Source: Minisyncoccota bacterium (GTDB taxonomy: Bacteria; Patescibacteriota; Minisyncoccia; Phycocordibacterales; Phycocordibacteraceae). From it: 64,000 bases of DNA. Position numbers and translations under genes: made by a program. Position 1 is the first letter of the stretch. Each line of letters starts with the position of its first letter. The stretch covers positions 71,585 through 135,584 of the forward strand of contig JBAZRE010000001.1 of NCBI GenBank assembly GCA_041663025.1. The letters run 5' to 3'. Under the pieces are notes generated by a model. That model saw only the letters and a list, made by a program, of their open reading frames with translations, was not told where the DNA came from and made no database searches. Shown here piece after piece: positions 931-41,723 of this stretch.

Positions 931-1161
931 TTATTTGGATTTTTTAATAAGTGTTTGTAGTGCACTAAAGTGCTTCGCCATACTCTCAAGCGCAGCGGGT
1001 CGCATTAGGAAAACACTGCCCTGATGAGCGATCACCATAAGCTTCGTTCCCTTAGATAGTTTGAGTGCTTCACGAATATCGGCCGGGATAACAATCTGCC
1101 CTTTCTCTCCAACAGTTGTAACGCCAATAAGCGACTCCTCTTTTTTGTGTCGTGTTGCCAT
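931..1161 (-). CDS. AbrB/MazE/SpoVT-family swapped-hairpin DNA-binding protein (76 aa)
   Basis: Motif VGEKGQIVIPADIREALKL is typical of the AbrB/MazE fold. The gene lies immediately upstream of the MFP gene on the same strand. Confidence 0.55.
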   Translation of the reverse strand: MATRHKKEESLIGVTTVGEKGQIVIPADIREALKLSKGTKLMVIAHQGSVFLMRPAALESMAKHFSALQTLIKKSK

Positions 1162-1624: not shown

Positions 1625-2650
1625 TTATACGTTAAAGAGCGGGCTAATAATTCCAGCGGTAGCGAGTGTGTTCGCGAGATTGAAGAGTGCAAGCGCAATG
1701 ACAATGATACCAGCCGTCTTGAAGAAAATCCCCTTCCACGACTTCTGCGCAATGTTGAGCGAGCCAAAGGAGAGCAGTGCGAGAACGGGGAGTGTCCCGA
1801 GAGCAAAGACGGTCATCGTCAACGCCCCTTGCACGAAACTGCCCGTCGAGAGTGAATAGAGCTGCATAGATTGGGTGAATCCGCAGGGCAAGAAGAACGT
1901 CCCGATACCAACCAAGAGCGGCGCGAGATAATGATCTCTTTTGCTCCCACCCACGACTTTCTTAGAAAAACTGGTGGGCAGCGTGAATTGTAGCTTCTTG
2001 GTGAAGTGAAAGACGTCAAGCAAGTTGATGCCGAGAGTGAGCATCACGAGCGCGACGATCCCTCCGAGCACAATGTTTGCGGTTAACCCAAGATGCAGTG
2101 AATTTCCGATAACACCCACAAGACCACCAAGGATAAAGAATCCGCCAAGTCGACCAACATGGAAGAGTGATTGGGTTCGCCACGTGCCACCCTCTCTTGC
2201 CGAGCTCGCAGAGAGCGAGAGGACGAGCCCACCAACAATCGCGAGGCATGAAGAGACCGAGGCAATGAGTCCAATAATAAATGCTGTACCGTAACTCACG
2301 CTTGAACCCGTAATGAGCGAGGTAAGCCCTGCCTTTTGTAAGAGCAGAAATCCTGCGATGAGTACGAGAGCGATCGGGAGCGCATACGCGAAGTCGCCCC
2401 ACCCGGCACTCGATATCGCCTTTTCTACTGAGAGTGTATAGCCATGGGTTCGTATCAGCTCGGTCAATTCTTGCGCAACTTCTTCAGGCGAACCATCAAA
2501 TTCACCGGTCACCGTCACTTGGCTGTTCGCTAGAGACACCTCCGCATTCTCAATGTGCGGGAGCTCCGTAAAGGTGTCTTCTATAAGAACCGTGCACGCC
2601 TTGCAGTGCATGCCGTTCACATAGAAAAGATGCGTTGTTTTATTGTTCAT
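1625..2650 (-). CDS. HMA (GMHCxxC) metal-binding domain fused to a polytopic CcdA/DsbD_2-like membrane domain; putative metal/thiol transporter
   Basis: The N-terminus carries GMHCKAC. At least six TM helices follow, with Cys in TM segments (SSCLA, LPCG). The start codon overlaps the copA stop. Confidence 0.6.
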   Translation of the reverse strand: MNNKTTHLFYVNGMHCKACTVLIEDTFTELPHIENAEVSLANSQVTVTGEFDGSPEEVAQELTELIRTHGYTLSVEKAISSAGWGDFAYALPIALVLIAGFLLLQKAGLTSLITGSSVSYGTAFIIGLIASVSSCLAIVGGLVLSLSASSAREGGTWRTQSLFHVGRLGGFFILGGLVGVIGNSLHLGLTANIVLGGIVALVMLTLGINLLDVFHFTKKLQFTLPTSFSKKVVGGSKRDHYLAPLLVGIGTFFLPCGFTQSMQLYSLSTGSFVQGALTMTVFALGTLPVLALLSFGSLNIAQKSWKGIFFKTAGIIVIALALFNLANTLATAGIISPLFNV

Positions 2651-4878
2651 AGATTTTTTGTTTTAAGGCGCAATGAATTAGAGACGACCGAAACACTCGA
2701 GAGCGCCATCGCGAGTCCTGCGAAAACTGGGTTCAAGAGTATCCCGAAGAATGGATACAGCAGGCCACTCGCCACCGGGATGCCGACGATATTATACGCG
2801 AACGCCCAGAATAGATTCTGCTTGATGCCGCGCATCGTGAATTTGGAGAGGCGAATTGCCTTCACCATCTTGCTGATGTCGCCATTCAAGAGTGTGATGC
2901 CTGCACTCTCTATTGCCACATCAGTGCCCGTTGCCATCGCGATGCCCACATCTGCCTGCGCGAGCGCCGGTGCATCATTGATACCATCGCCTGCCATAGC
3001 GACGATGTGACTTTGTGATTGGAGCTCTTTGATTTTGTTCAATTTGTCTTCTGGCATTACCTCAGCGACAATTTCATCTATTCCCGCCTGCTCCGCGATA
3101 TACTGTGCCGTTTGTGCATTATCGCCCGTGAGCATGACAACGCGGATGCCGAGCTTATGGAGATTCGCGACTGCCTCCTTTGCTTCTGGCTTTATCGCGT
3201 CAGCCACCATCGCGACAGCAAGTGTCTTCCCATTCGCAATGAGGATAACCGGTGTCTTCCCCTCAGAGGTGTCTTTATCTAGTGACTCAAAAGATGCTCC
3301 AAGTTCTCTCGCAAGTTTTTCGCTGCCAACGTGATATGTCACACCGCCTATTGCCCCGACAACTCCTTTACCTTTCAGCATTTCAAACCCCTCTACCGGC
3401 ATAAACGGAATATTCTTCTCATGAGCATACGAGACAATCGCGTGAGCTATTGGGTGCTCCGATTTGTTATCAAGTGACGCGAGAATTGAGGTGATATCAG
3501 CATCGCTCTTTTCAGAAAAATTCTTTAGTGACACCAACTCCGGTTTCCCTCTTGTTATCGTACCTGTTTTATCAACTACGACTGTGGTTACTTTGTGCAA
3601 TTTTTCAAGTGTGCTCGCATCCTTGATGAGAATACCTTCTTTTGCACCTTTTCCGACACCGACAATAATCGCGGTTGGCGTTGCGAGCCCTAGCGCGCAA
3701 GGGCATGCAATGACCAGCACTCCGACAAACGAGACGAGCCCGAGCGAGAGCGCCTGTGCGAATCCGAGATATGCCGCCCCAACAAAAATCCAGAGCCCAA
3801 GTGAGGCAAAGGCTATGACGAGCACAATCGGCACAAAGACGCTCGAGATCTTATCCGCAAGCGCCTGGATGGGTGCCTTGCTCCCTTGTGCATCTTCAAC
3901 CATTTGAATGATGTGCGCGAGCAGAGTCTCAGAGCCGACCTTCGTTGCCTTGAAGGTGAACGAACCGGTGGTGTTCAGTGTCCCTGCCACGACCTTATCG
4001 CCAACATTCTTCTCTACCGGCACCGGCTCACCAGAGATCATCGCTTCATCTATATAAGATGATCCCTCGGTGATAACGCCATCCACGGGGATTCTGCCGG
4101 CGGGCTTCACGATGATGAGCTCACCATGCACCACTTGCTCTATGGGGATCTCTATCTCGACACCATCGCGAATCACGAGCGCAGTCTTCGCCTGCAAATT
4201 AAGCAATTTTTCAATTGCATCGCCAGTCTTCAACTTCGCCCTCGCCTCAAGATATTTACCGAGCGAGATAAACGCGATGACGACGATCGCCACATCGAAG
4301 TAGGCGACCTCAACATTCACATACGCGCTCAATTGCTCGGCAAATACCGTGACGGCTGTGCTGTAGAGAAACGCCGCGGAGGTACCGATGCCTATGAGTG
4401 TGTCCATGTTCGCCTTGCCATAGCGCACAAATCGGTAGAAGCCGAGTAAATAGGGCTTGCCAACGAAGAAGAGCGCGTAGGCCGCCATAACTGCCAAGAG
4501 ATAACGGAGGAAACCGCTCACTGCCTCTGGAGCAGCAACCACGCGATTGAATTCTACGAGAATATCCCACGACATGATGAAGATGGCGATGACCGCCATC
4601 GGCATGATGGTGAAGATCTTCGTCTTCATTACAGCGAGCTCGGCAAGTTTCTCGCCCTTAGATTGATTCGTAACAAATGAATAGCCGAGTGGTTCTATAT
4701 TTTTAGAAAGTTGTTGTGAGTTCGTTTTTGTTTCATCAAAAACTACTTTTGCCGATTCATTTCCATAATTCACTTGCACCTCCTCAACTCCAACAACTTT
4801 CTTTAAAGACTTTTCAATGATGTGTGCACAGGAGGCACAATGCATGCCGCGAATCCGATAGGTTTGTGTGGTATTCAT
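2647..4878 (-). CDS. copA: Copper-translocating P1B-type ATPase
   Basis: The product carries an N-terminal HMA motif GMHCASCA, the CPC ion-transduction motif, the DKTGT phosphorylation site and GDGINDAP. Length is 743 aa. Confidence 0.95.
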   Translation of the reverse strand: MNTTQTYRIRGMHCASCAHIIEKSLKKVVGVEEVQVNYGNESAKVVFDETKTNSQQLSKNIEPLGYSFVTNQSKGEKLAELAVMKTKIFTIMPMAVIAIFIMSWDILVEFNRVVAAPEAVSGFLRYLLAVMAAYALFFVGKPYLLGFYRFVRYGKANMDTLIGIGTSAAFLYSTAVTVFAEQLSAYVNVEVAYFDVAIVVIAFISLGKYLEARAKLKTGDAIEKLLNLQAKTALVIRDGVEIEIPIEQVVHGELIIVKPAGRIPVDGVITEGSSYIDEAMISGEPVPVEKNVGDKVVAGTLNTTGSFTFKATKVGSETLLAHIIQMVEDAQGSKAPIQALADKISSVFVPIVLVIAFASLGLWIFVGAAYLGFAQALSLGLVSFVGVLVIACPCALGLATPTAIIVGVGKGAKEGILIKDASTLEKLHKVTTVVVDKTGTITRGKPELVSLKNFSEKSDADITSILASLDNKSEHPIAHAIVSYAHEKNIPFMPVEGFEMLKGKGVVGAIGGVTYHVGSEKLARELGASFESLDKDTSEGKTPVILIANGKTLAVAMVADAIKPEAKEAVANLHKLGIRVVMLTGDNAQTAQYIAEQAGIDEIVAEVMPEDKLNKIKELQSQSHIVAMAGDGINDAPALAQADVGIAMATGTDVAIESAGITLLNGDISKMVKAIRLSKFTMRGIKQNLFWAFAYNIVGIPVASGLLYPFFGILLNPVFAGLAMALSSVSVVSNSLRLKTKNL

Positions 4879-34987: not shown

Positions 34988-35178
34988 AAACTAATAAATC
35001 ATATTCTAAGAGAATCCGCGTGACCCGTACGGGCAAGCTTATGGCGCGTAAGCCAGGCCAGGACCACTTCAACGCGAAGCAGAGCGGCTCAGAGCGAAGT
35101 GCCAAGCGTCGCTCGGTCTCTATCACGCTCTCCGCGCGCACTCGCCGACGCTTCCTCCCGGGAACGGGCGCTAAGTAA
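34984..35178 (+). CDS. rpmI: 50S ribosomal protein L35
   Basis: MKTNKSYSKRIRVTRTGKLMARK. Confidence 0.9.
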   Translation: MKTNKSYSKRIRVTRTGKLMARKPGQDHFNAKQSGSERSAKRRSVSITLSARTRRRFLPGTGAK

Positions 35179-35201
35179 TTAATTTTAGTAATAATTTTCG
35201 T

Positions 35202-35549
35202 ATGACAAGAATCAAAGGAGGTGTGCAGGCACAGAAGCGCCGCAAGAATGTGCTCGAAAGAGCGAAGGGCTTCCGCGGTGTCCGCTCGAAGAAGGAGCGT
35301 TACGCACACGAGGCGCTTATGCGCGCGGGCAAGTACTCCTTCGCCCACCGCCGCGATAAGAAGACCGACTTCCGCCAGCTCTGGATCGTTCGCCTTAATG
35401 CGGCGGTTCGTGAGGCAGGTCATAAGTCATACTCCACCTTTATTGCAAAGTTGAAGAAGAACGGCTTCACTCTGGATCGTAAGGTCCTCGCCGAATTCGC
35501 CGCCGACCGCCCCGAAATCTTCGAGAGAATCCAGAAGCAGGTTGTGTAA
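35202..35549 (+). CDS. rplT: 50S ribosomal protein L20
   Basis: MTRIKGGVQAQKRRKNVLERAKGFRG. Confidence 0.93.
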   Translation: MTRIKGGVQAQKRRKNVLERAKGFRGVRSKKERYAHEALMRAGKYSFAHRRDKKTDFRQLWIVRLNAAVREAGHKSYSTFIAKLKKNGFTLDRKVLAEFAADRPEIFERIQKQVV

Positions 35550-35659
35550 TGAAACAAACCTCGCCACGGAACTTGACTCTTTCACTAAATTAGTGATACC
35601 ATAGAGTTGGTGCTGGTTGGGCTGTCTTAATAGAGATAGATCATGAAAGGAGATGAACG

Positions 35660-35872
35660 ATGCTCGCTCACAAGAGGTTTAAAGAAAAAGTCCCTGTAGT
35701 AAATAAGGAAACTGGTCAAGAAGTTGGGGTGGCGCGCCCTTCATCTATACTTGCAGCGCACTTGCACAACAATTCGGTTTCGTGTTTGAAATTCGAGGGT
35801 AGGTATGTAGCGTGCATATTCGACCCCGATAACCCAACCGAAATTCAAATCTTCCCAACGAAAGATTTATAA
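35660..35872 (+). CDS. Hypothetical 70 aa protein
   Basis: AAAGGAG SD 8 nt upstream of the ATG; followed by an intrinsic terminator. Confidence 0.45.
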   Translation: MLAHKRFKEKVPVVNKETGQEVGVARPSSILAAHLHNNSVSCLKFEGRYVACIFDPDNPTEIQIFPTKDL

Positions 35873-35898
35873 CCCGCCTCAATGAATGAGGCATTGAG

Positions 35899-35925
35899 AC
35901 CCCACCGCTGTGGGGTTTTATATTA
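35899..35925 (+). terminator. Intrinsic terminator (CCCCAC-cgct-GTGGGG-TTTTATATT)
   Basis: Hairpin followed by a T-run. A second palindrome, CACCCCGCTC-gcaa-GAGCGGGGTG, lies at about 35985..36008. Confidence 0.6.
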
Positions 35926-36023
35926 TCCACACTAGCACTTGATTTTATCTAAGCGGTAGGATACATTGACTGAACAAACGGCTTCGGCCTGCACCCCGCT
36001 CGCAAGAGCGGGGTGAGAACGTT

Positions 36024-36416
36024 TTATAGGGAGAAACTTACTCTAACGACCTCTTGTAGAAGCGCACGAAACAGCTTTTCATCGAGAGTGCATATCTTAT
36101 TTTTCAATCGCTTGCGATCAATGAAGCGAACCTGTGAGAGTACCGCCACAGCATCTCGATCTTCGATTTTGCCAACAGAGAAATAATACTTACCCTGTTT
36201 TGGTCTCCCGGTTAGCGGCACGATAAGACATGCATCAAGGTTGAATTTTTTGAGGATAACAACGGGGCGTTCGAAGTCTTGACCACCATCTTGTTCAAAG
36301 CCAATATTTGCACCCAAGGCACACCACCACACTTCCCTTTCATGAAATAGAGCCGTGCCTTCAACCTTATTGAGATGTTCTTTTTTGGTATGCCACTTCC
36401 AAAAATCTTTTTCCAT
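36024..36416 (-). CDS. mazF: MazF/PemK-family endoribonuclease toxin (orphan)
   Basis: Blocks REVWWCALGANIGFEQDG-ERPVVILK, ACLIVPLTGRPKQGKYYF and DAVAVLSQVRFIDRKRL align with E. coli MazF. No antitoxin ORF lies in the 18 nt upstream gap. Confidence 0.75.
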   Translation of the reverse strand: MEKDFWKWHTKKEHLNKVEGTALFHEREVWWCALGANIGFEQDGGQDFERPVVILKKFNLDACLIVPLTGRPKQGKYYFSVGKIEDRDAVAVLSQVRFIDRKRLKNKICTLDEKLFRALLQEVVRVSFSL

Positions 36417-36434
36417 GCTTTTAAGTTTAAATAT

Positions 36435-37826
36435 TTAAATCTTTTTTACTGATTCTTTCGTGATCTCCCAGGTTTGGCCGACTTCGGGGACTATGGCGCG
36501 GGCGCCGAGGTAGTCGTGGACACGCTGAGCGAGAAATCGCTCGGTGGCGGGCTCACCCATCGCGACAAAGATCGCTTTTGGCCGCTTCTCGGCGAGCGCC
36601 GCCTCGGCGAAGGTGAGAAGTTCGTCCCGGTCAGCGTGTGCCGACCAACCCTCCAGAAGCTCCACTTTTGCTCTTATTTTGACCTCATGGCCATTGAGGC
36701 GTACAGAGGGCGAACCCTCCGCCATGCGCCTCCCAGGGCTCCCAGGGGCCTGATAACCGGCGATTATCAGGGTCGTGGTTGGATCGGGCAGATAGAGCGA
36801 CTCCCACTTCCCTATCCTGCCGCCATGACTCATGCCAGCGCCAGCGATAATGATCTTCGGGTTTGGAGTATTCTTTATCGCCTCAGACTCCTCGCGTGAA
36901 AGCGTCTCCTTGAGGAACGGAAATTCAAAAATACTTTTTTCTCTTTTCATCTCCTCTTCGGTCTCGGGCTTAAAATATTTCATCCCCCACTTTTCATAAA
37001 TAGCCGTAACGTGTATCGCGAGTGGCGAATCAAGAAAGACAGGGATCTTTGTTAATTGTTTGGCATCAAAAAAATTAGAGAGCTCATAGAGCATAAGTTG
37101 TGTGCGCTCGAGTGAAAATGCGGGGATGAGGATGGTGCCGTTCTTCGCAATTGCCTTTTTCAGCACCTCGACCAAGATCTCAGTGCGTCGCTGCTGCTCC
37201 GGATGAATTCTATCTCCGTACACACTCTCCATCACCATCGCATCGGCGTCAGGCACTGGCTCCCAATTGGGCAAGAGTGGTGAGGGTGAATTACCAATGT
37301 CGCCAGTTAGTACAATCGTTGTTCCCTCTTCATCAGTGATTCGCACGCTCGCCGAGCCAAGTATATGACCGGTATTGCGAAGATATATTGAAAGACCATC
37401 GGCAATTTTTTTCTCTTTATGATATTCAAGTGTTTCGATAAGCGAGATTGCCAGATCAACATCCTTTTCTTCATAGATAGGCAGCACGCCGTTTCTAGCA
37501 GCCTCTTCGCCCAAGATGCCAACCGAGTCACGCAAGATAAGCTCAGCGAGATCCTTGGTCGGCGGCGTCATGTATATCTTCCCGCGAAACCCGTCTCGAA
37601 CTAATTTTGGAATACGGCCGACATGGTCAAGATGTGCGTGCGTTAATACAAGCGCTTCAATAGTTTTTGCATCATACGGAAACGCATCGTGCATGTGTGC
37701 CTCACTGAAGTCATGGCCTTGTTCTATTCCACAATCAACGAGAATTTTTCCTTTTGATCCTTCAACCAAAAAATTTGAACCGGTTACTTTCCCGGTGCCA
37801 CCATAAAAACTTAAACGCAATGACAT
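36435..37826 (-). CDS. MBL-fold beta-CASP RNA-metabolising hydrolase (COG1236/CPSF73-like)
   Basis: HxHxDH motif LTHAHLDHVGR, beta-CASP motifs and a C-terminal His. Length is 463 aa. Confidence 0.75.
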   Translation of the reverse strand: MSLRLSFYGGTGKVTGSNFLVEGSKGKILVDCGIEQGHDFSEAHMHDAFPYDAKTIEALVLTHAHLDHVGRIPKLVRDGFRGKIYMTPPTKDLAELILRDSVGILGEEAARNGVLPIYEEKDVDLAISLIETLEYHKEKKIADGLSIYLRNTGHILGSASVRITDEEGTTIVLTGDIGNSPSPLLPNWEPVPDADAMVMESVYGDRIHPEQQRRTEILVEVLKKAIAKNGTILIPAFSLERTQLMLYELSNFFDAKQLTKIPVFLDSPLAIHVTAIYEKWGMKYFKPETEEEMKREKSIFEFPFLKETLSREESEAIKNTPNPKIIIAGAGMSHGGRIGKWESLYLPDPTTTLIIAGYQAPGSPGRRMAEGSPSVRLNGHEVKIRAKVELLEGWSAHADRDELLTFAEAALAEKRPKAIFVAMGEPATERFLAQRVHDYLGARAIVPEVGQTWEITKESVKKI

Positions 37827-37844
37827 ATAAGAACTTTAACACGT

Positions 37845-37882
37845 GAAAAAACCGTCCTCGCTGTTAGCGGGACGGTTTTTTC
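37845..37882. terminator. Bidirectional intrinsic terminator (A6-AACCGTCC-loop-GGACGGTT-T6)
   Basis: An 8 bp stem with a flanking A-run and T-run. Confidence 0.6.
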
Positions 37883-38072
37883 ACGGAGTCATTCCCTAGA
37901 GCAACTTTATCTTGCCAGGTGGGTGCTCTATCGCACACTCATCGGAACGCCGAAGCACTCAACCAGAATACGCGAACTAACGAGCTCCCAAAATATAGGC
38001 AAGTTGCGAAAAAAAGGAACGACTCCACTTACAAGTATACACCCCGTGTCAATAGATTTGATGAAGGATGGG

Positions 38073-38549
38073 TTAGAACGATTCTTCGGCGTTAATGAAT
38101 CCAAAATCATTACGCGTATAATCAAAAAGCTCCTCCTCTTTAAAGAATCGAGTGACTTCTGTGACACCTGCTTCGACACTATCTGACGCATGAACGATGT
38201 TTGATTGCATAGAGAGCGAGAGATCACCACGGATCGTGCCCGCAGCAGCCTCATAGGCCTTCGTCGGGCCGACAATAAGACGAGTTGCGGCAACCGCATT
38301 AATCCCCGAGAGAGCCATGACTACCACGGGAGCTGATTTCATATAGCTCTTGATGCCACTAAAGAACGGCTTATCCTTGATATGCGCATAATGTGCTTCG
38401 AGGAGAGCGTCTTCGAGCTGGATCATCTTCATGCCGATAATCTTGAGACCTTTGCGCTCTAAGCGACTGATGACTTCTCCCATAAGTCCGCGGTGCACCG
38501 CATCGGGTTTAAGAATAATAAGAGCCTTTTCTTCTTTTGGATGTGCCAT
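38073..38549 (-). CDS. ndk: Nucleoside diphosphate kinase
   Basis: Active-site His in NIVHASDS; 158 aa. Confidence 0.92.
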   Translation of the reverse strand: MAHPKEEKALIILKPDAVHRGLMGEVISRLERKGLKIIGMKMIQLEDALLEAHYAHIKDKPFFSGIKSYMKSAPVVVMALSGINAVAATRLIVGPTKAYEAAAGTIRGDLSLSMQSNIVHASDSVEAGVTEVTRFFKEEELFDYTRNDFGFINAEESF

Positions 38550-39970: not shown

Positions 39971-40360
39971 TTATTCAATTTCAATCCTCCCTTCACTTAC
40001 TGCTCTCCTTACGTCGACTGCTGCCACTTCCCGAAGCCAATTCAAGATTGAATTCATATCGAACGGCTTTTCAATCACTTCGTCGGCAAGATGATCGATT
40101 GGCACCCCATTTGGGTTACCGGTTATGATGAGTACCGGCATATTTGATTTTTGGCATTTTGCTATTTTCGTTAGCTCGGCGCCGTCCATTCTTGGCATCT
40201 CTAAGTCAGTGATTAATACATCTGCGTTGTTGAGATACTGAATAGCACTTCCTCCGTCTACACACGCGATTACTTCGAATTCGAAATTCTCAAGAAACCC
40301 TTTAAGAAATTCTCGCATCGTTTTCGAATCGTCAACAAGTAGCACTTTCTTTTTTCTCAT
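39971..40360 (-). CDS. Single-domain response regulator (REC only) inserted between secY and adk
   Basis: Begins MRKKKVLLVDDS, with DLEMPRMDG and a conserved Lys. AGGAGG SD 8 nt upstream; extended -10 TGaTATACT further upstream. Confidence 0.75.
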   Translation of the reverse strand: MRKKKVLLVDDSKTMREFLKGFLENFEFEVIACVDGGSAIQYLNNADVLITDLEMPRMDGAELTKIAKCQKSNMPVLIITGNPNGVPIDHLADEVIEKPFDMNSILNWLREVAAVDVRRAVSEGRIEIE

Positions 40361-40448
40361 CTCTATGCCTCCTCTTTTTAGACTTGTTTTGTACTTCTTA
40401 TCTCTGTCTGTGGAACAGTATATCACCCTTTTTGCAAAACGCAAACGG

Positions 40449-41723
40449 TTAATATTCCCGGAGGGAAACTTGTGCGTCGATCTTCTGTGCAAGGTCAAGA
40501 GCTACTTGGACAGCGATAAGGAGTGCCGTACCGCCAAGAACGAGTGTTGTAACGCCCGTGATGCCTTGAATGATTGATGGCGCAACTGCGAGAAGACCGA
40601 GGAAGCAGGCTCCGGGGAGCGTGACACGGGTCACAATGTTGCCGATGTATTCTTCAGTCTCACGGCCAGGGCGCACGCCAGGAACAAAGGCGCCTGTTTT
40701 CTGAAGATTCTCCGCGACGCGATGCGGCTCGAAGGTGACGGCAGTATAGAAGTAGGTGAAGAGCACAACGAGGACAAAATAGACCGCGCCATATTGCCAC
40801 GGATTAGAGAGGAAGGCGGTATACCAGAGTGCTGCACCAGCAGCAAACGAGACATGCACCGCACCCAACATCGAGAGCACCATCTGCGGTAAGAGTAGGA
40901 GTGAGAGTGCAAAAATAATCGGGATAACGCCCGCCTGCAAGAGACGTATCGGGAGATAGGTCGCCGCACCTTGAGACATCGCGGCGCCGCGCACCGCTCG
41001 CGCATACGCGATCGGTATAGAACGTTCAGCATCAGAGACGACAACGACTGCATAAATCATTGCGATTGCGAGGGCGAGAAAGGCGAGGTATGCCGGAATA
41101 TTTGCGGCAGTAGAAGCAAAAATGGCATTTGAGATACTTGAGGGCACGCTTGCGAGAATCCCTGCGAGAATGATGAGTGACACGCCATTGCCGATACCGA
41201 ATTCGGTGACGAGCTCGCCGAGCCACATGAGGAGCATCGATCCGGCAGCAACAATCGCGATGTCAGTGATAAACGCGACTGTGCCGAGACGCATCAAGAC
41301 ACCCTGGCTCTGGAGAAGAAGCAAGAATCCAATCGCTTGAAGGATAGCAATCGGAATAGTGAGAAGACGGCTCCATTCGATGAAACGAGCACGACCGGCC
41401 TCTCCTTCCTCAAAGTAAGCCTGCTTTATTTGTGGGAAGATGATCGTCCCAAGCTGCATGATGATTGAAGCGGTAATGTAGGGACCAACGCCAAGCATCA
41501 CAATGGAGAGTTGTGAGAGCCCGCCACCAGAAAAGATATTCAAAAGACCGAAAAATTGATTACTCGCAAAGAATGATGCGAGTGCAACACGATCAACACC
41601 AGGTATCGGTATCGAAGCGAGAAGGCGGAAGAGTGCGAGTGCACCGAGAAGAAAAAGTATGCGACGACGGATTTCAGAGTCGCCGAAAGCGAGTTTAATC
41701 TTCCGAATAAAAGAATTAAGCAT
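40449..41723 (-). CDS. secY: Preprotein translocase SecY
   Basis: Ten TM helices; start set at MLNSFIRKIK. Confidence 0.93.
   Translation of the reverse strand: MLNSFIRKIKLAFGDSEIRRRILFLLGALALFRLLASIPIPGVDRVALASFFASNQFFGLLNIFSGGGLSQLSIVMLGVGPYITASIIMQLGTIIFPQIKQAYFEEGEAGRARFIEWSRLLTIPIAILQAIGFLLLLQSQGVLMRLGTVAFITDIAIVAAGSMLLMWLGELVTEFGIGNGVSLIILAGILASVPSSISNAIFASTAANIPAYLAFLALAIAMIYAVVVVSDAERSIPIAYARAVRGAAMSQGAATYLPIRLLQAGVIPIIFALSLLLLPQMVLSMLGAVHVSFAAGAALWYTAFLSNPWQYGAVYFVLVVLFTYFYTAVTFEPHRVAENLQKTGAFVPGVRPGRETEEYIGNIVTRVTLPGACFLGLLAVAPSIIQGITGVTTLVLGGTALLIAVQVALDLAQKIDAQVSLREY

Follow-up and report, generated by a model that had tools for sequence, protein, structure and literature searches.

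The 64,000-nucleotide (nt) stretch of the Minisyncoccota contig JBAZRE010000001.1 analysed in this work (hereafter, the window) contains a gene for a MazF-like endoribonuclease (36024-36416, minus strand) with no gene for a MazE-type antitoxin beside it. At the 3' end of this gene, on the opposite strand, we observed a conserved element with the promoter and the structured transcript expected of a small RNA (sRNA) gene, about 54 nt long and convergent with the toxin gene, which accompanies related MazF genes in a nearly one-to-one manner. This predicted sRNA gene appears to be an undescribed constant companion of a large MazF subfamily, and it is most likely an RNA antitoxin. The antidote of this MazF is probably the RNA of about 54 nt rather than a MazE protein, and we consider it reasonably likely that a convergent RNA antitoxin controls the N-terminally extended subfamily as a whole (approximately 1,000 clusters).

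The MazF-like protein and the convergent RNA element

The 130-residue product of the MazF-like open reading frame (ORF) matches the PemK_toxin family of Pfam (PF02452) over residues 27-123 with 46.8 bits, against a cutoff of 23.1 (E=3.7e-12). Its best phmmer match in the PDB is S. aureus MazF, and B. subtilis MazF is also among the best solved relatives. The catalytic residues R50 (in ERPVV) and T69 (in PLTGR) align with their S. aureus equivalents, correspond to R25 and T48 of B. subtilis MazF and show no variation among 26 homologs. The Pfam score and the aligned catalytic residues bear out the original prediction, made from the sequence alone, of a clear MazF-family ORF; the Arg/Thr pair, whose loss it had named as a reason for doubt, is intact. 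The AF2 model has a moderate mean confidence (pLDDT, predicted local distance difference test, of 72), with residues 19-35 poorly modelled. When it was compared to the PDB with Foldseek, all 50 matches listed were MazF chains, the top ones being 4mzp, 4me7 and 7bxy (S. aureus and B. subtilis MazF), with template-modelling (TM) scores of 0.58-0.69 and E values down to 4e-6.

With respect to canonical MazF, the protein carries an N-terminal extension of about 25 residues, rich in W, K and H, with a helix predicted at residues 5-16 (FWKWHTKKEHLN). We found 380 close homologs and 1035 clusters of homologs (50% identity, E<=1e-10). The extension seems to be a feature of these clusters, considering that in almost all of the best 150 listed the alignment begins at the first residues of the query. 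The phage protein family phrog_9567 also matches with the extension included, no PADLOC defence model matches the ORF, and an identical protein has been deposited under "Candidatus Paceibacterota". The subfamily is distributed over Patescibacteria, plasmids of Campylobacterota and phage protein families. Judging from these comparisons, the 130-residue product is a true endoribonuclease of the MazF fold, from a distinct subfamily marked by the N-terminal extension and apparently never paired with MazE; its sequence-specific RNase activity and its ability to inhibit growth are predicted from the fold and the catalytic residues.

A scan of GTDB, with one genome per species (185,579 genomes), gave 220 loci containing a relative of the MazF-like protein, and 80 of them, retrieved by two peptide patterns, were fetched for comparison. 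Small spurious ORFs just downstream of MazF share the peptides GRSRLF, AEAVC and RPKPF, which all proved to derive from one DNA motif, GGCCGAAGCCGTTTGT, translated in three different frames; in this way the RNA element came to light. With up to 3 mismatches, the motif is present in the window and in 67 of the 80 loci, in 62 cases within 60 nt of the MazF stop codon and usually 26-45 nt past it. A covariance model (R1), built from 31 sequences, detected the element in 70 of the 80 loci, in each case on the strand opposite to MazF and abutting the 3' end of the gene. Eight more loci carry variants missed by R1 and recognised by eye, with GGCC-N4-5-GGCC or GCC-UUCG-GGC stems. One locus is cut by a contig end and one lacks the element, which is therefore present in 78 of the 79 assessable loci.

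In the window, R1 gave a single match over the whole 64 kb (35968-36037, plus strand, 72 bits). The predicted sRNA extends from about 35974 to 36027 on the plus strand, so that its 3' U-run (36022-36025) overlaps the MazF stop codon (36024-36026, minus strand). The putative sigma-70 promoter consists of a -35 box, TTGATT (35939-35944), and a -10 box, TACATT (35962-35967), separated by a 17-nt spacer, and the predicted transcription start, 6 nt beyond the -10 box, is the A at 35974. The transcript would begin with the single-stranded 5' tail ACAAAC (35974-35979), conserved in the alignments with the family consensus AYAAAY. This is followed by hairpin 1, GGC-UUCG-GCC (35980-35989), near-invariant in the main subfamily, and by hairpin 2 (35992-36015), a 10-bp GC-rich stem with a GCAA loop which precedes GAGAAC and would act as the sRNA terminator. 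The minimum free energy of the folded sRNA is -26.9 kcal/mol (z=-3.5). The original prediction had mentioned palindromic hairpins past the MazF stop, and we found them at 35992-36015, 35980-35989, 35900-35915 and 35876-35892; it had passed over them briefly, and those at the stop codon belong to the conserved convergent sRNA gene.

The same layout recurs among the loci: opposite MazF there is a -35 box, a spacer of 16-18 nt, a -10 box of the form TANNNT and, 6 nt further, the conserved A of ACAAAYGG. A promoter of the form TTGNNN-N16-18-TANNNT precedes 74 of 77 elements, as compared to 0.8% of random windows. Among these 74 matches the -35 box is TTGACT or TTGACA in 55, and the -10 box ends exactly 6 nt before the conserved A in 65. 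The consensus RNA comprises the GGC-UUCG-GCC hairpin, a 2-4-nt linker, a variable GC-rich hairpin with a GNRA-like loop and a U-run lying over the MazF stop codon. In an alignment of 63 sequences the columns of hairpin 1 are invariant; its stem is kept through sequence change between subfamilies, which amounts to covariation in hairpin 1. In hairpin 2, compensatory changes are seen in 9 of 9 pairs and 96% of the cells are paired, a result that none of 500 shuffles equalled. A U-run of at least 3 nt follows hairpin 2 on the sRNA strand in 48 of the 77 elements and on the mRNA strand in none. In pairs of loci with less than 60% protein identity, third-codon positions are 37% identical as compared to 86% for the 18-nt core, a value that is owed in part to how the loci were anchored.

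The element does not correspond to a known RNA family or to a tRNA. Rfam 15, RF02913 included, gave no family at E<=1 over 35000-38500 and noise alone at E<=10 over 35880-36480, and in a cmscan of 10 diverse loci nothing was found at the RNA element. An integron attC site, or another site acting at the DNA level, was likewise set aside: ordinary housekeeping genes form the flanks, there is no fit to the inverse-core and core motifs, and the conserved boxes are accounted for by the geometry of a promoter. The conserved 16-mer had no other target within the loci or the window: at up to 3 mismatches, the search returned the cis site alone.

A DnaA-box-like site, TTATCCACA, precedes the -35 box in a part of the family. 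In the window it is a perfect match at 35923-35931 (plus strand), 7 nt upstream of the -35 box. Allowing up to one mismatch in either orientation, 27 of the 77 elements have it at one fixed place immediately before the -35 box, against a background of 2.5% (about 14-fold enrichment). The enrichment was replicated in independent metagenome elements (11 of 60, against 0.65%; P=2e-13, about 28-fold). In all, 18-35% of elements, the window's included, have the site. If functional, it would link the control of the toxin to the replication initiator, and toxin activity would then report the status of replication initiation. The broader proposal, in which the subfamily of about 1,000 clusters is neutralised by the convergent sRNA of about 54 nt and not by MazE, and the sRNA is moreover wired to DnaA in a substantial subset, is put forward tentatively, and we would not yet give it an even chance.

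Search for a protein antitoxin and coupling of the element to MazF

A MazE or PemI gene beside MazF was absent in all 80 loci. For the window, the original prediction had stated that no MazE is adjacent and that the 18-nt gap upstream of MazF has no room for one, and had suggested a search for small unannotated ORFs. We agree with the former, since the gap holds no ORF, and the search revealed no ORF of at least 30 residues, in the orientation of MazF, between the two genes or just upstream. Furthermore, clustering of all ORFs of at least 35 residues within 3 kb of MazF gave no conserved neighbour protein in the 80 loci. An overlooked protein antitoxin was rejected for the same-strand flanks too, where the small ORFs are mutually unrelated or are frame artefacts of the RNA element.

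The one MazE/AbrB-like ORF mentioned in the original prediction does exist (931-1161, minus strand; Pfam MazE_antitoxin, 4.4e-8), but its proposed role as a trans-acting antitoxin found no support, its product having no homolog near related loci: none was found in 1.5 Mb of sequence around approximately 200-208 of them. This solo SpoVT/AbrB (MazE-domain) gene adjoins genes for a heavy-metal P-type ATPase and for HMA-domain proteins (neighbouring genes at 1216-1806, 1625-2650 and 2647-4878, all on the minus strand), with no toxin adjacent. It may be a transcription regulator of this metal cluster rather than an antitoxin.

The RNA element, on the contrary, follows MazF wherever the gene is duplicated. 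All the extra R1 matches lie at the 3' end of extra MazF-like paralogs (loci L023, L035, L036, L060, L065 and L080), and the paralogs of L023 and L077 also score above the Pfam PemK_toxin threshold. Two or three modules of MazF plus sRNA, in tandem or a few kb apart, are found in L060 (6001-7448), L035 (4892-6390), L065 (255-1330), L023 (6001-10104) and L036 (2309-4147). The sRNA 5' tails differ between paralogs of one genome (ACAAAC as compared to ACAGUU), a difference which may insulate parallel systems from each other.

The coupling was also examined in reverse, by scanning metagenome contigs for the 18-mer motif. The 18-mer alone had to be discarded as a marker, because about half of its matches were chance occurrences inside unrelated coding sequence, as were two matches on viral contigs; it gains specificity only when the promoter and hairpin 2 accompany it. 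In fact, the promoter was present in 54 of 56 motif matches adjacent to MazF, as compared to 6 of 63 non-adjacent ones, and 54 of the 60 cases of motif plus promoter lie beside an intact MazF-like ORF. The remaining six are mostly cut contigs or decayed toxins, with one (L096) located by an unrelated ORF. In the decayed module at L084 (2288-2570; the same element is present in L130), an internal deletion has left a toxin stump of 44 residues, whereas the sRNA is intact and its promoter, a perfect DnaA box and a -10 box of the leaderless type are all kept.

More distant relatives on plasmids show a comparable organisation. The Nitratiruptor plasmid pNitYY0814_PLS (L207), with a MazF 37% identical to that of the window, has the same architecture with different hairpin sequences: on the opposite strand, TTGCAT-N17-TATAAT-N6-AUAAAUC is followed by two hairpins abutting the stop codon. 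Downstream of the homolog carried by a Helicobacter plasmid (30% identical) there is a comparable series of hairpins, where the promoter could not be made out.

Two further observations were made at these loci. In L207, a 62-residue ORF (1955-2143, plus strand), RHH/CopG-like (ribbon-helix-helix) by eye, lies past the MazF homolog and before the plasmid rep gene, and its start falls within the -35 region predicted for the sRNA promoter; it could encode a plasmid copy-number repressor or a protein antitoxin in that lineage. A LOOT RNA (RF03000, 75 bits) is located on a Kaiserbacteria contig (L048, 8577-8696, plus strand) about 2 kb from the MazF-like gene, and is probably unrelated.

The promoter of mazF itself appears weak. 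The candidate -10 box in the window, TAAACT (36424-36429, minus strand), lies 7 nt before the ATG and is a weak assignment, by inference. In 32 of 63 related loci a TANNNT box, most commonly TACAAT, is found 5-9 nt before the MazF start codon, as compared to 7% of random windows. A box so placed suggests a leaderless mazF mRNA made from a weak promoter, usually a -10 box alone.

Possible mode of control and alternative explanations

In the mechanism that we favour, transcription of the sRNA would start from a strong sigma-70 promoter, some 50 nt past the mazF stop, and proceed towards the toxin gene until hairpin 2 terminates it. The mazF mRNA should instead read through the sRNA gene, because hairpin 2 has no U-tract on the mRNA strand. 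The abundant sRNA and the 3' end of the mazF mRNA could then form a perfect duplex of at least 50 nt, and the convergent transcription might also cause direct interference. Either event would result in less MazF being made, as in txpA/RatA, bsrG/SR4 and par/Fst, and by analogy with these systems antisense repression of mazF is the most likely mechanism. In RNA-antitoxin systems a strong antitoxin promoter is typically combined with a weak toxin promoter, and the near-consensus sRNA promoter and the weak mazF promoter fit this pattern. Pairing as a cis-antisense RNA would not require an invariant tail and hairpin 1, and their invariance suggests an added, sequence-specific recognition step, possibly a direct binding to MazF as in type III systems.

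Several points weigh against control by a convergent RNA antitoxin. The sRNA is predicted from sequence, as are its expression, the toxicity of MazF, the neutralisation and the route by which this would occur. Two peptide patterns served to retrieve the 80 loci, which therefore sample one subfamily. In the window itself the promoter hexamers are mediocre (8 of 12 matches, under the threshold of a simple scanner), and in the main subfamily the U-run lies 5-6 nt past the stem, which is not a textbook terminator. The counts of G-U and A-C favour the sRNA strand only mildly (27 vs. 15), the asymmetry of the U-tract being clearer. To our knowledge, nearly all the type I toxins described are small membrane peptides. 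A cUUCGg hairpin of 3 bp is rigid and would serve poorly as a kissing loop, and a strong sequence invariance is not expected of a purely antisense mechanism.

Since a purely antisense mechanism does not explain why the tail and hairpin 1 are nearly invariant, direct recognition of the RNA by MazF is a serious alternative, or an extra step. In such a case, similar to type III systems, the sRNA would neutralise MazF by binding the protein, with the AYAAAY tail as a pseudo-substrate occupying the groove of the active site and the N-terminal helix holding the UUCG hairpin, and the antisense arrangement would be secondary. The fold of ToxN, the type III toxin, is related to that of MazF/Kid. The sequence conservation of the tail and hairpin 1 despite the divergence at third-codon positions agrees with this possibility, as do the W/K/H-rich extension seen throughout the approximately 1000 clusters and missing from canonical MazF, and the different tails of paralogs within a genome, as for insulated systems. 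On the other hand, the RNA gene is single-copy, downstream and convergent, with no upstream tandem array on the same strand, and its strict overlap with the stop codon would be unexplained if binding in trans alone counted. Moreover, Foldseek groups the protein with MazF proper (ToxN is not among the 50 matches listed), and the type of hairpin 1 shows no simple correlation with the N-terminal sequence. On balance, we regard neutralisation mainly by direct binding as rather unlikely.

It is more doubtful still that the element, antisense promoter included, merely insulates transcription or terminates it in both directions and plays no part as an antitoxin. In that case MazF would be curbed otherwise, by a MazE/AbrB protein acting in trans (such as the product of 931-1161), by low expression or by low activity, or would be a non-toxic housekeeping RNase. 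Hairpin 2 is indeed terminator-like, an AbrB/MazE-domain gene exists within the window, and solo toxins are common, with regulation in trans having been proposed for them (PMC2701414). Nevertheless, a terminator would have no need of a near-consensus promoter directed at the gene or of a stretch of 16 invariant nt, and the AbrB-like protein has no homolog at the approximately 200-208 related loci searched. As for the housekeeping form of this explanation, the patchy spread, the tandem arrays, the plasmid relatives and the decayed copies speak against it.

A mobile module of the toxin-antitoxin kind fits the data better than a housekeeping RNase does, considering that the family is found at 220 loci among 185,579 species genomes, in multi-copy arrays and on plasmids, that the segment holding it in the window is absent from this junction in close relatives, that remnants with a decayed toxin exist and that a strong RNA promoter is combined with a weak toxin promoter. 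By these features, the toxin and the sRNA would be a compact, mobile two-gene module.

The surroundings of MazF in the window are in line with the mobility of the module. The upstream gene (36435-37826, minus strand) encodes a beta-CASP/MBL (metallo-beta-lactamase) RNA-metabolising enzyme of 463 residues, which lies outside the module and is recognised by Pfam as Beta-Casp (3e-26), Lactamase_B and RMMBL. The original prediction had correctly described MazF as co-oriented 18 nt behind it: both genes are on the minus strand and the gap is exactly 18 nt. Around the beta-CASP gene the order secY-adk-map-ndk-betaCASP is conserved. In three relatives (L203, L205 and L206), whose beta-CASP is 80-83% identical, the same block is present and beta-CASP is directly convergent with rplT, the stops being 24-28 nt apart; in a fourth (L204), other genes (DUF1653 and a major facilitator superfamily (MFS) gene) occupy the rplT/beta-CASP junction. 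Because beta-CASP abuts rplT in close relatives, MazF sits in sequence that those relatives lack, at a variable junction. This segment of about 880 bp (35550-36434), between rplT and beta-CASP, has no counterpart in close relatives and holds MazF, the sRNA, a 70-residue ORF and the hairpins.

The idea, advanced in the original prediction as a domesticated RNase pair, that MazF and beta-CASP form a functional, co-evolved pair or operon is highly improbable: although the two genes could be co-transcribed in the window, given their orientation and the 18-nt gap, their adjacency, whose conservation had been proposed as a check, recurs in none of the 80 related loci (tblastn with the window's beta-CASP found a homolog within 6 kb in one locus only, 2.8 kb away and not adjacent), close relatives keep beta-CASP without MazF at the same syntenic position, and beta-CASP belongs to the core genes, its homologs numbering at least 7,967 (E<=1e-50), as opposed to a rare and patchy MazF family. 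The position of MazF beside beta-CASP thus appears incidental.

Other features of this region were also recorded. The 70-residue ORF (35660-35872, plus strand) inside the relative-absent segment is a putative gene with its own terminator-like hairpin and T-run (the hairpins at 35876-35892 and 35900-35915); it matches nothing in Pfam, NCBIfam, PHROG or PADLOC, and none of 208 related loci has a homolog of it. The best NCBIfam match of beta-CASP is the type VII CRISPR Cas14 MBL/beta-CASP model (386 bits, cutoff 800), which reflects a shared fold only, nothing CRISPR-like being close by. A strong hairpin with flanking A and T runs, shaped like a bidirectional terminator, is located at 37847-37883, about 20 nt upstream of the beta-CASP start codon. 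The gap between ndk (38073-38549, minus strand) and beta-CASP (start at 37826) is 246 nt in the window, 18 nt in L203 and L204, and 273 nt in L205. Finally, a response-regulator receiver gene (39971-40498, minus strand) is inserted between secY and adk within the block of ribosomal-protein genes and secY; it is also present in L203 and L204 and not in L205.

Significance and comparison with known systems

Literature searches on MazF combined with Patescibacteria, RNA antitoxin, antisense and pemK motif did not turn up an earlier account of a MazF partnered by an RNA. Solo toxins account for a large fraction of the MazF-like genes. The question of how cells tolerate them has stood since the comparative survey of 2009 (PMC2701414), in which an excess of solo toxins was noted and small-RNA antitoxins were merely speculated upon (Makarova et al., 2009; PMC2701414). 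A MazF subfamily with an RNA antitoxin would give a concrete and testable answer for one class of "orphan" MazF and would explain at least part of the solo-MazF excess. It would also be an undescribed pairing of a 'type II' toxin with an RNA antitoxin, making the border between types I/III and type II less sharp, and it would mean that candidate phyla radiation (CPR) bacteria, with their small genomes, control an RNase toxin without a protein. A compact cassette of toxin and sRNA could be assayed in E. coli or in cultivated carriers, namely Nitratiruptor sp. YY08 (plasmid) and possibly Helicobacter sp. NHP21005 (plasmid) and Methylocystis suflitae NLS-7. There is a practical side as well: annotation pipelines label such genes "type II toxin-antitoxin system PemK/MazF family toxin", while no Rfam model matches the RNA.

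With type II systems such as MazEF and PemIK (Kid/Kis), the module shares the fold of the toxin, the Pfam family and the catalytic Arg/Thr pair. Unlike them, it has no adjacent, co-transcribed protein antitoxin of the MazE/PemI, AbrB or RHH fold in the 80 loci. It differs also in the N-terminal extension of about 25 residues and in an mRNA that is apparently leaderless and monocistronic, as compared to their antitoxin-first operon.

The resemblance to the type III systems ToxIN, CptIN and TenpIN lies in an RNase toxin whose partner is an RNA, not a protein, with conserved sequence elements. Antitoxins of the ToxI type are tandem repeats located upstream on the same strand and processed by the toxin. 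The RNA described here is single-copy, downstream and antisense; no ToxI-like tandem repeats were found near the MazF gene, nor same-strand upstream repeats split off by a terminator, and the protein groups with MazF and not with ToxN. The pemK motif of Rfam (RF02913), a candidate cis-regulatory RNA, is also named after genes of the MazF/PemK family, but its model matches neither the window (E<=10) nor the 10 diverse loci.

Type I systems with nuclease toxins are exemplified by SymE/SymR and RalR/RalA. SymE has the AbrB fold, and it is the 5' end of symE, with the ribosome-binding site, that SymR overlaps; RalR is a DNase. Both systems share with the module a nuclease-type protein toxin that is, or here would be, under an antisense RNA, although neither toxin is a MazF.

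The closest parallels are the type I systems with convergent genes overlapping at their 3' ends, txpA/RatA and bsrG/SR4 of B. subtilis and the par locus of E. faecalis (Fst, RNA I/RNA II). Their toxins are membrane peptides of less than 60 residues, whereas the toxin here is a soluble MazF-fold RNase of 130 residues and not a small hydrophobic peptide. The RNA here is of about 54 nt, with a non-terminator part that is invariant in sequence and yet lies outside the coding sequence, and in a subset of loci a DnaA-box-like site is found at its promoter. As in type I systems, the gene architecture predicts an antisense RNA overlapping the toxin transcript, and this architecture, with a convergent promoter and a structured RNA that abuts or overlaps the stop codon, was seen in 78 of 79 loci. 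As in the 3'-overlapping systems, the toxin and sRNA genes are convergent, with 3' ends that overlap at a shared hairpin, and a strong RNA promoter and a weak toxin promoter are predicted within a compact two-gene unit which occurs in multiple copies and on plasmids.

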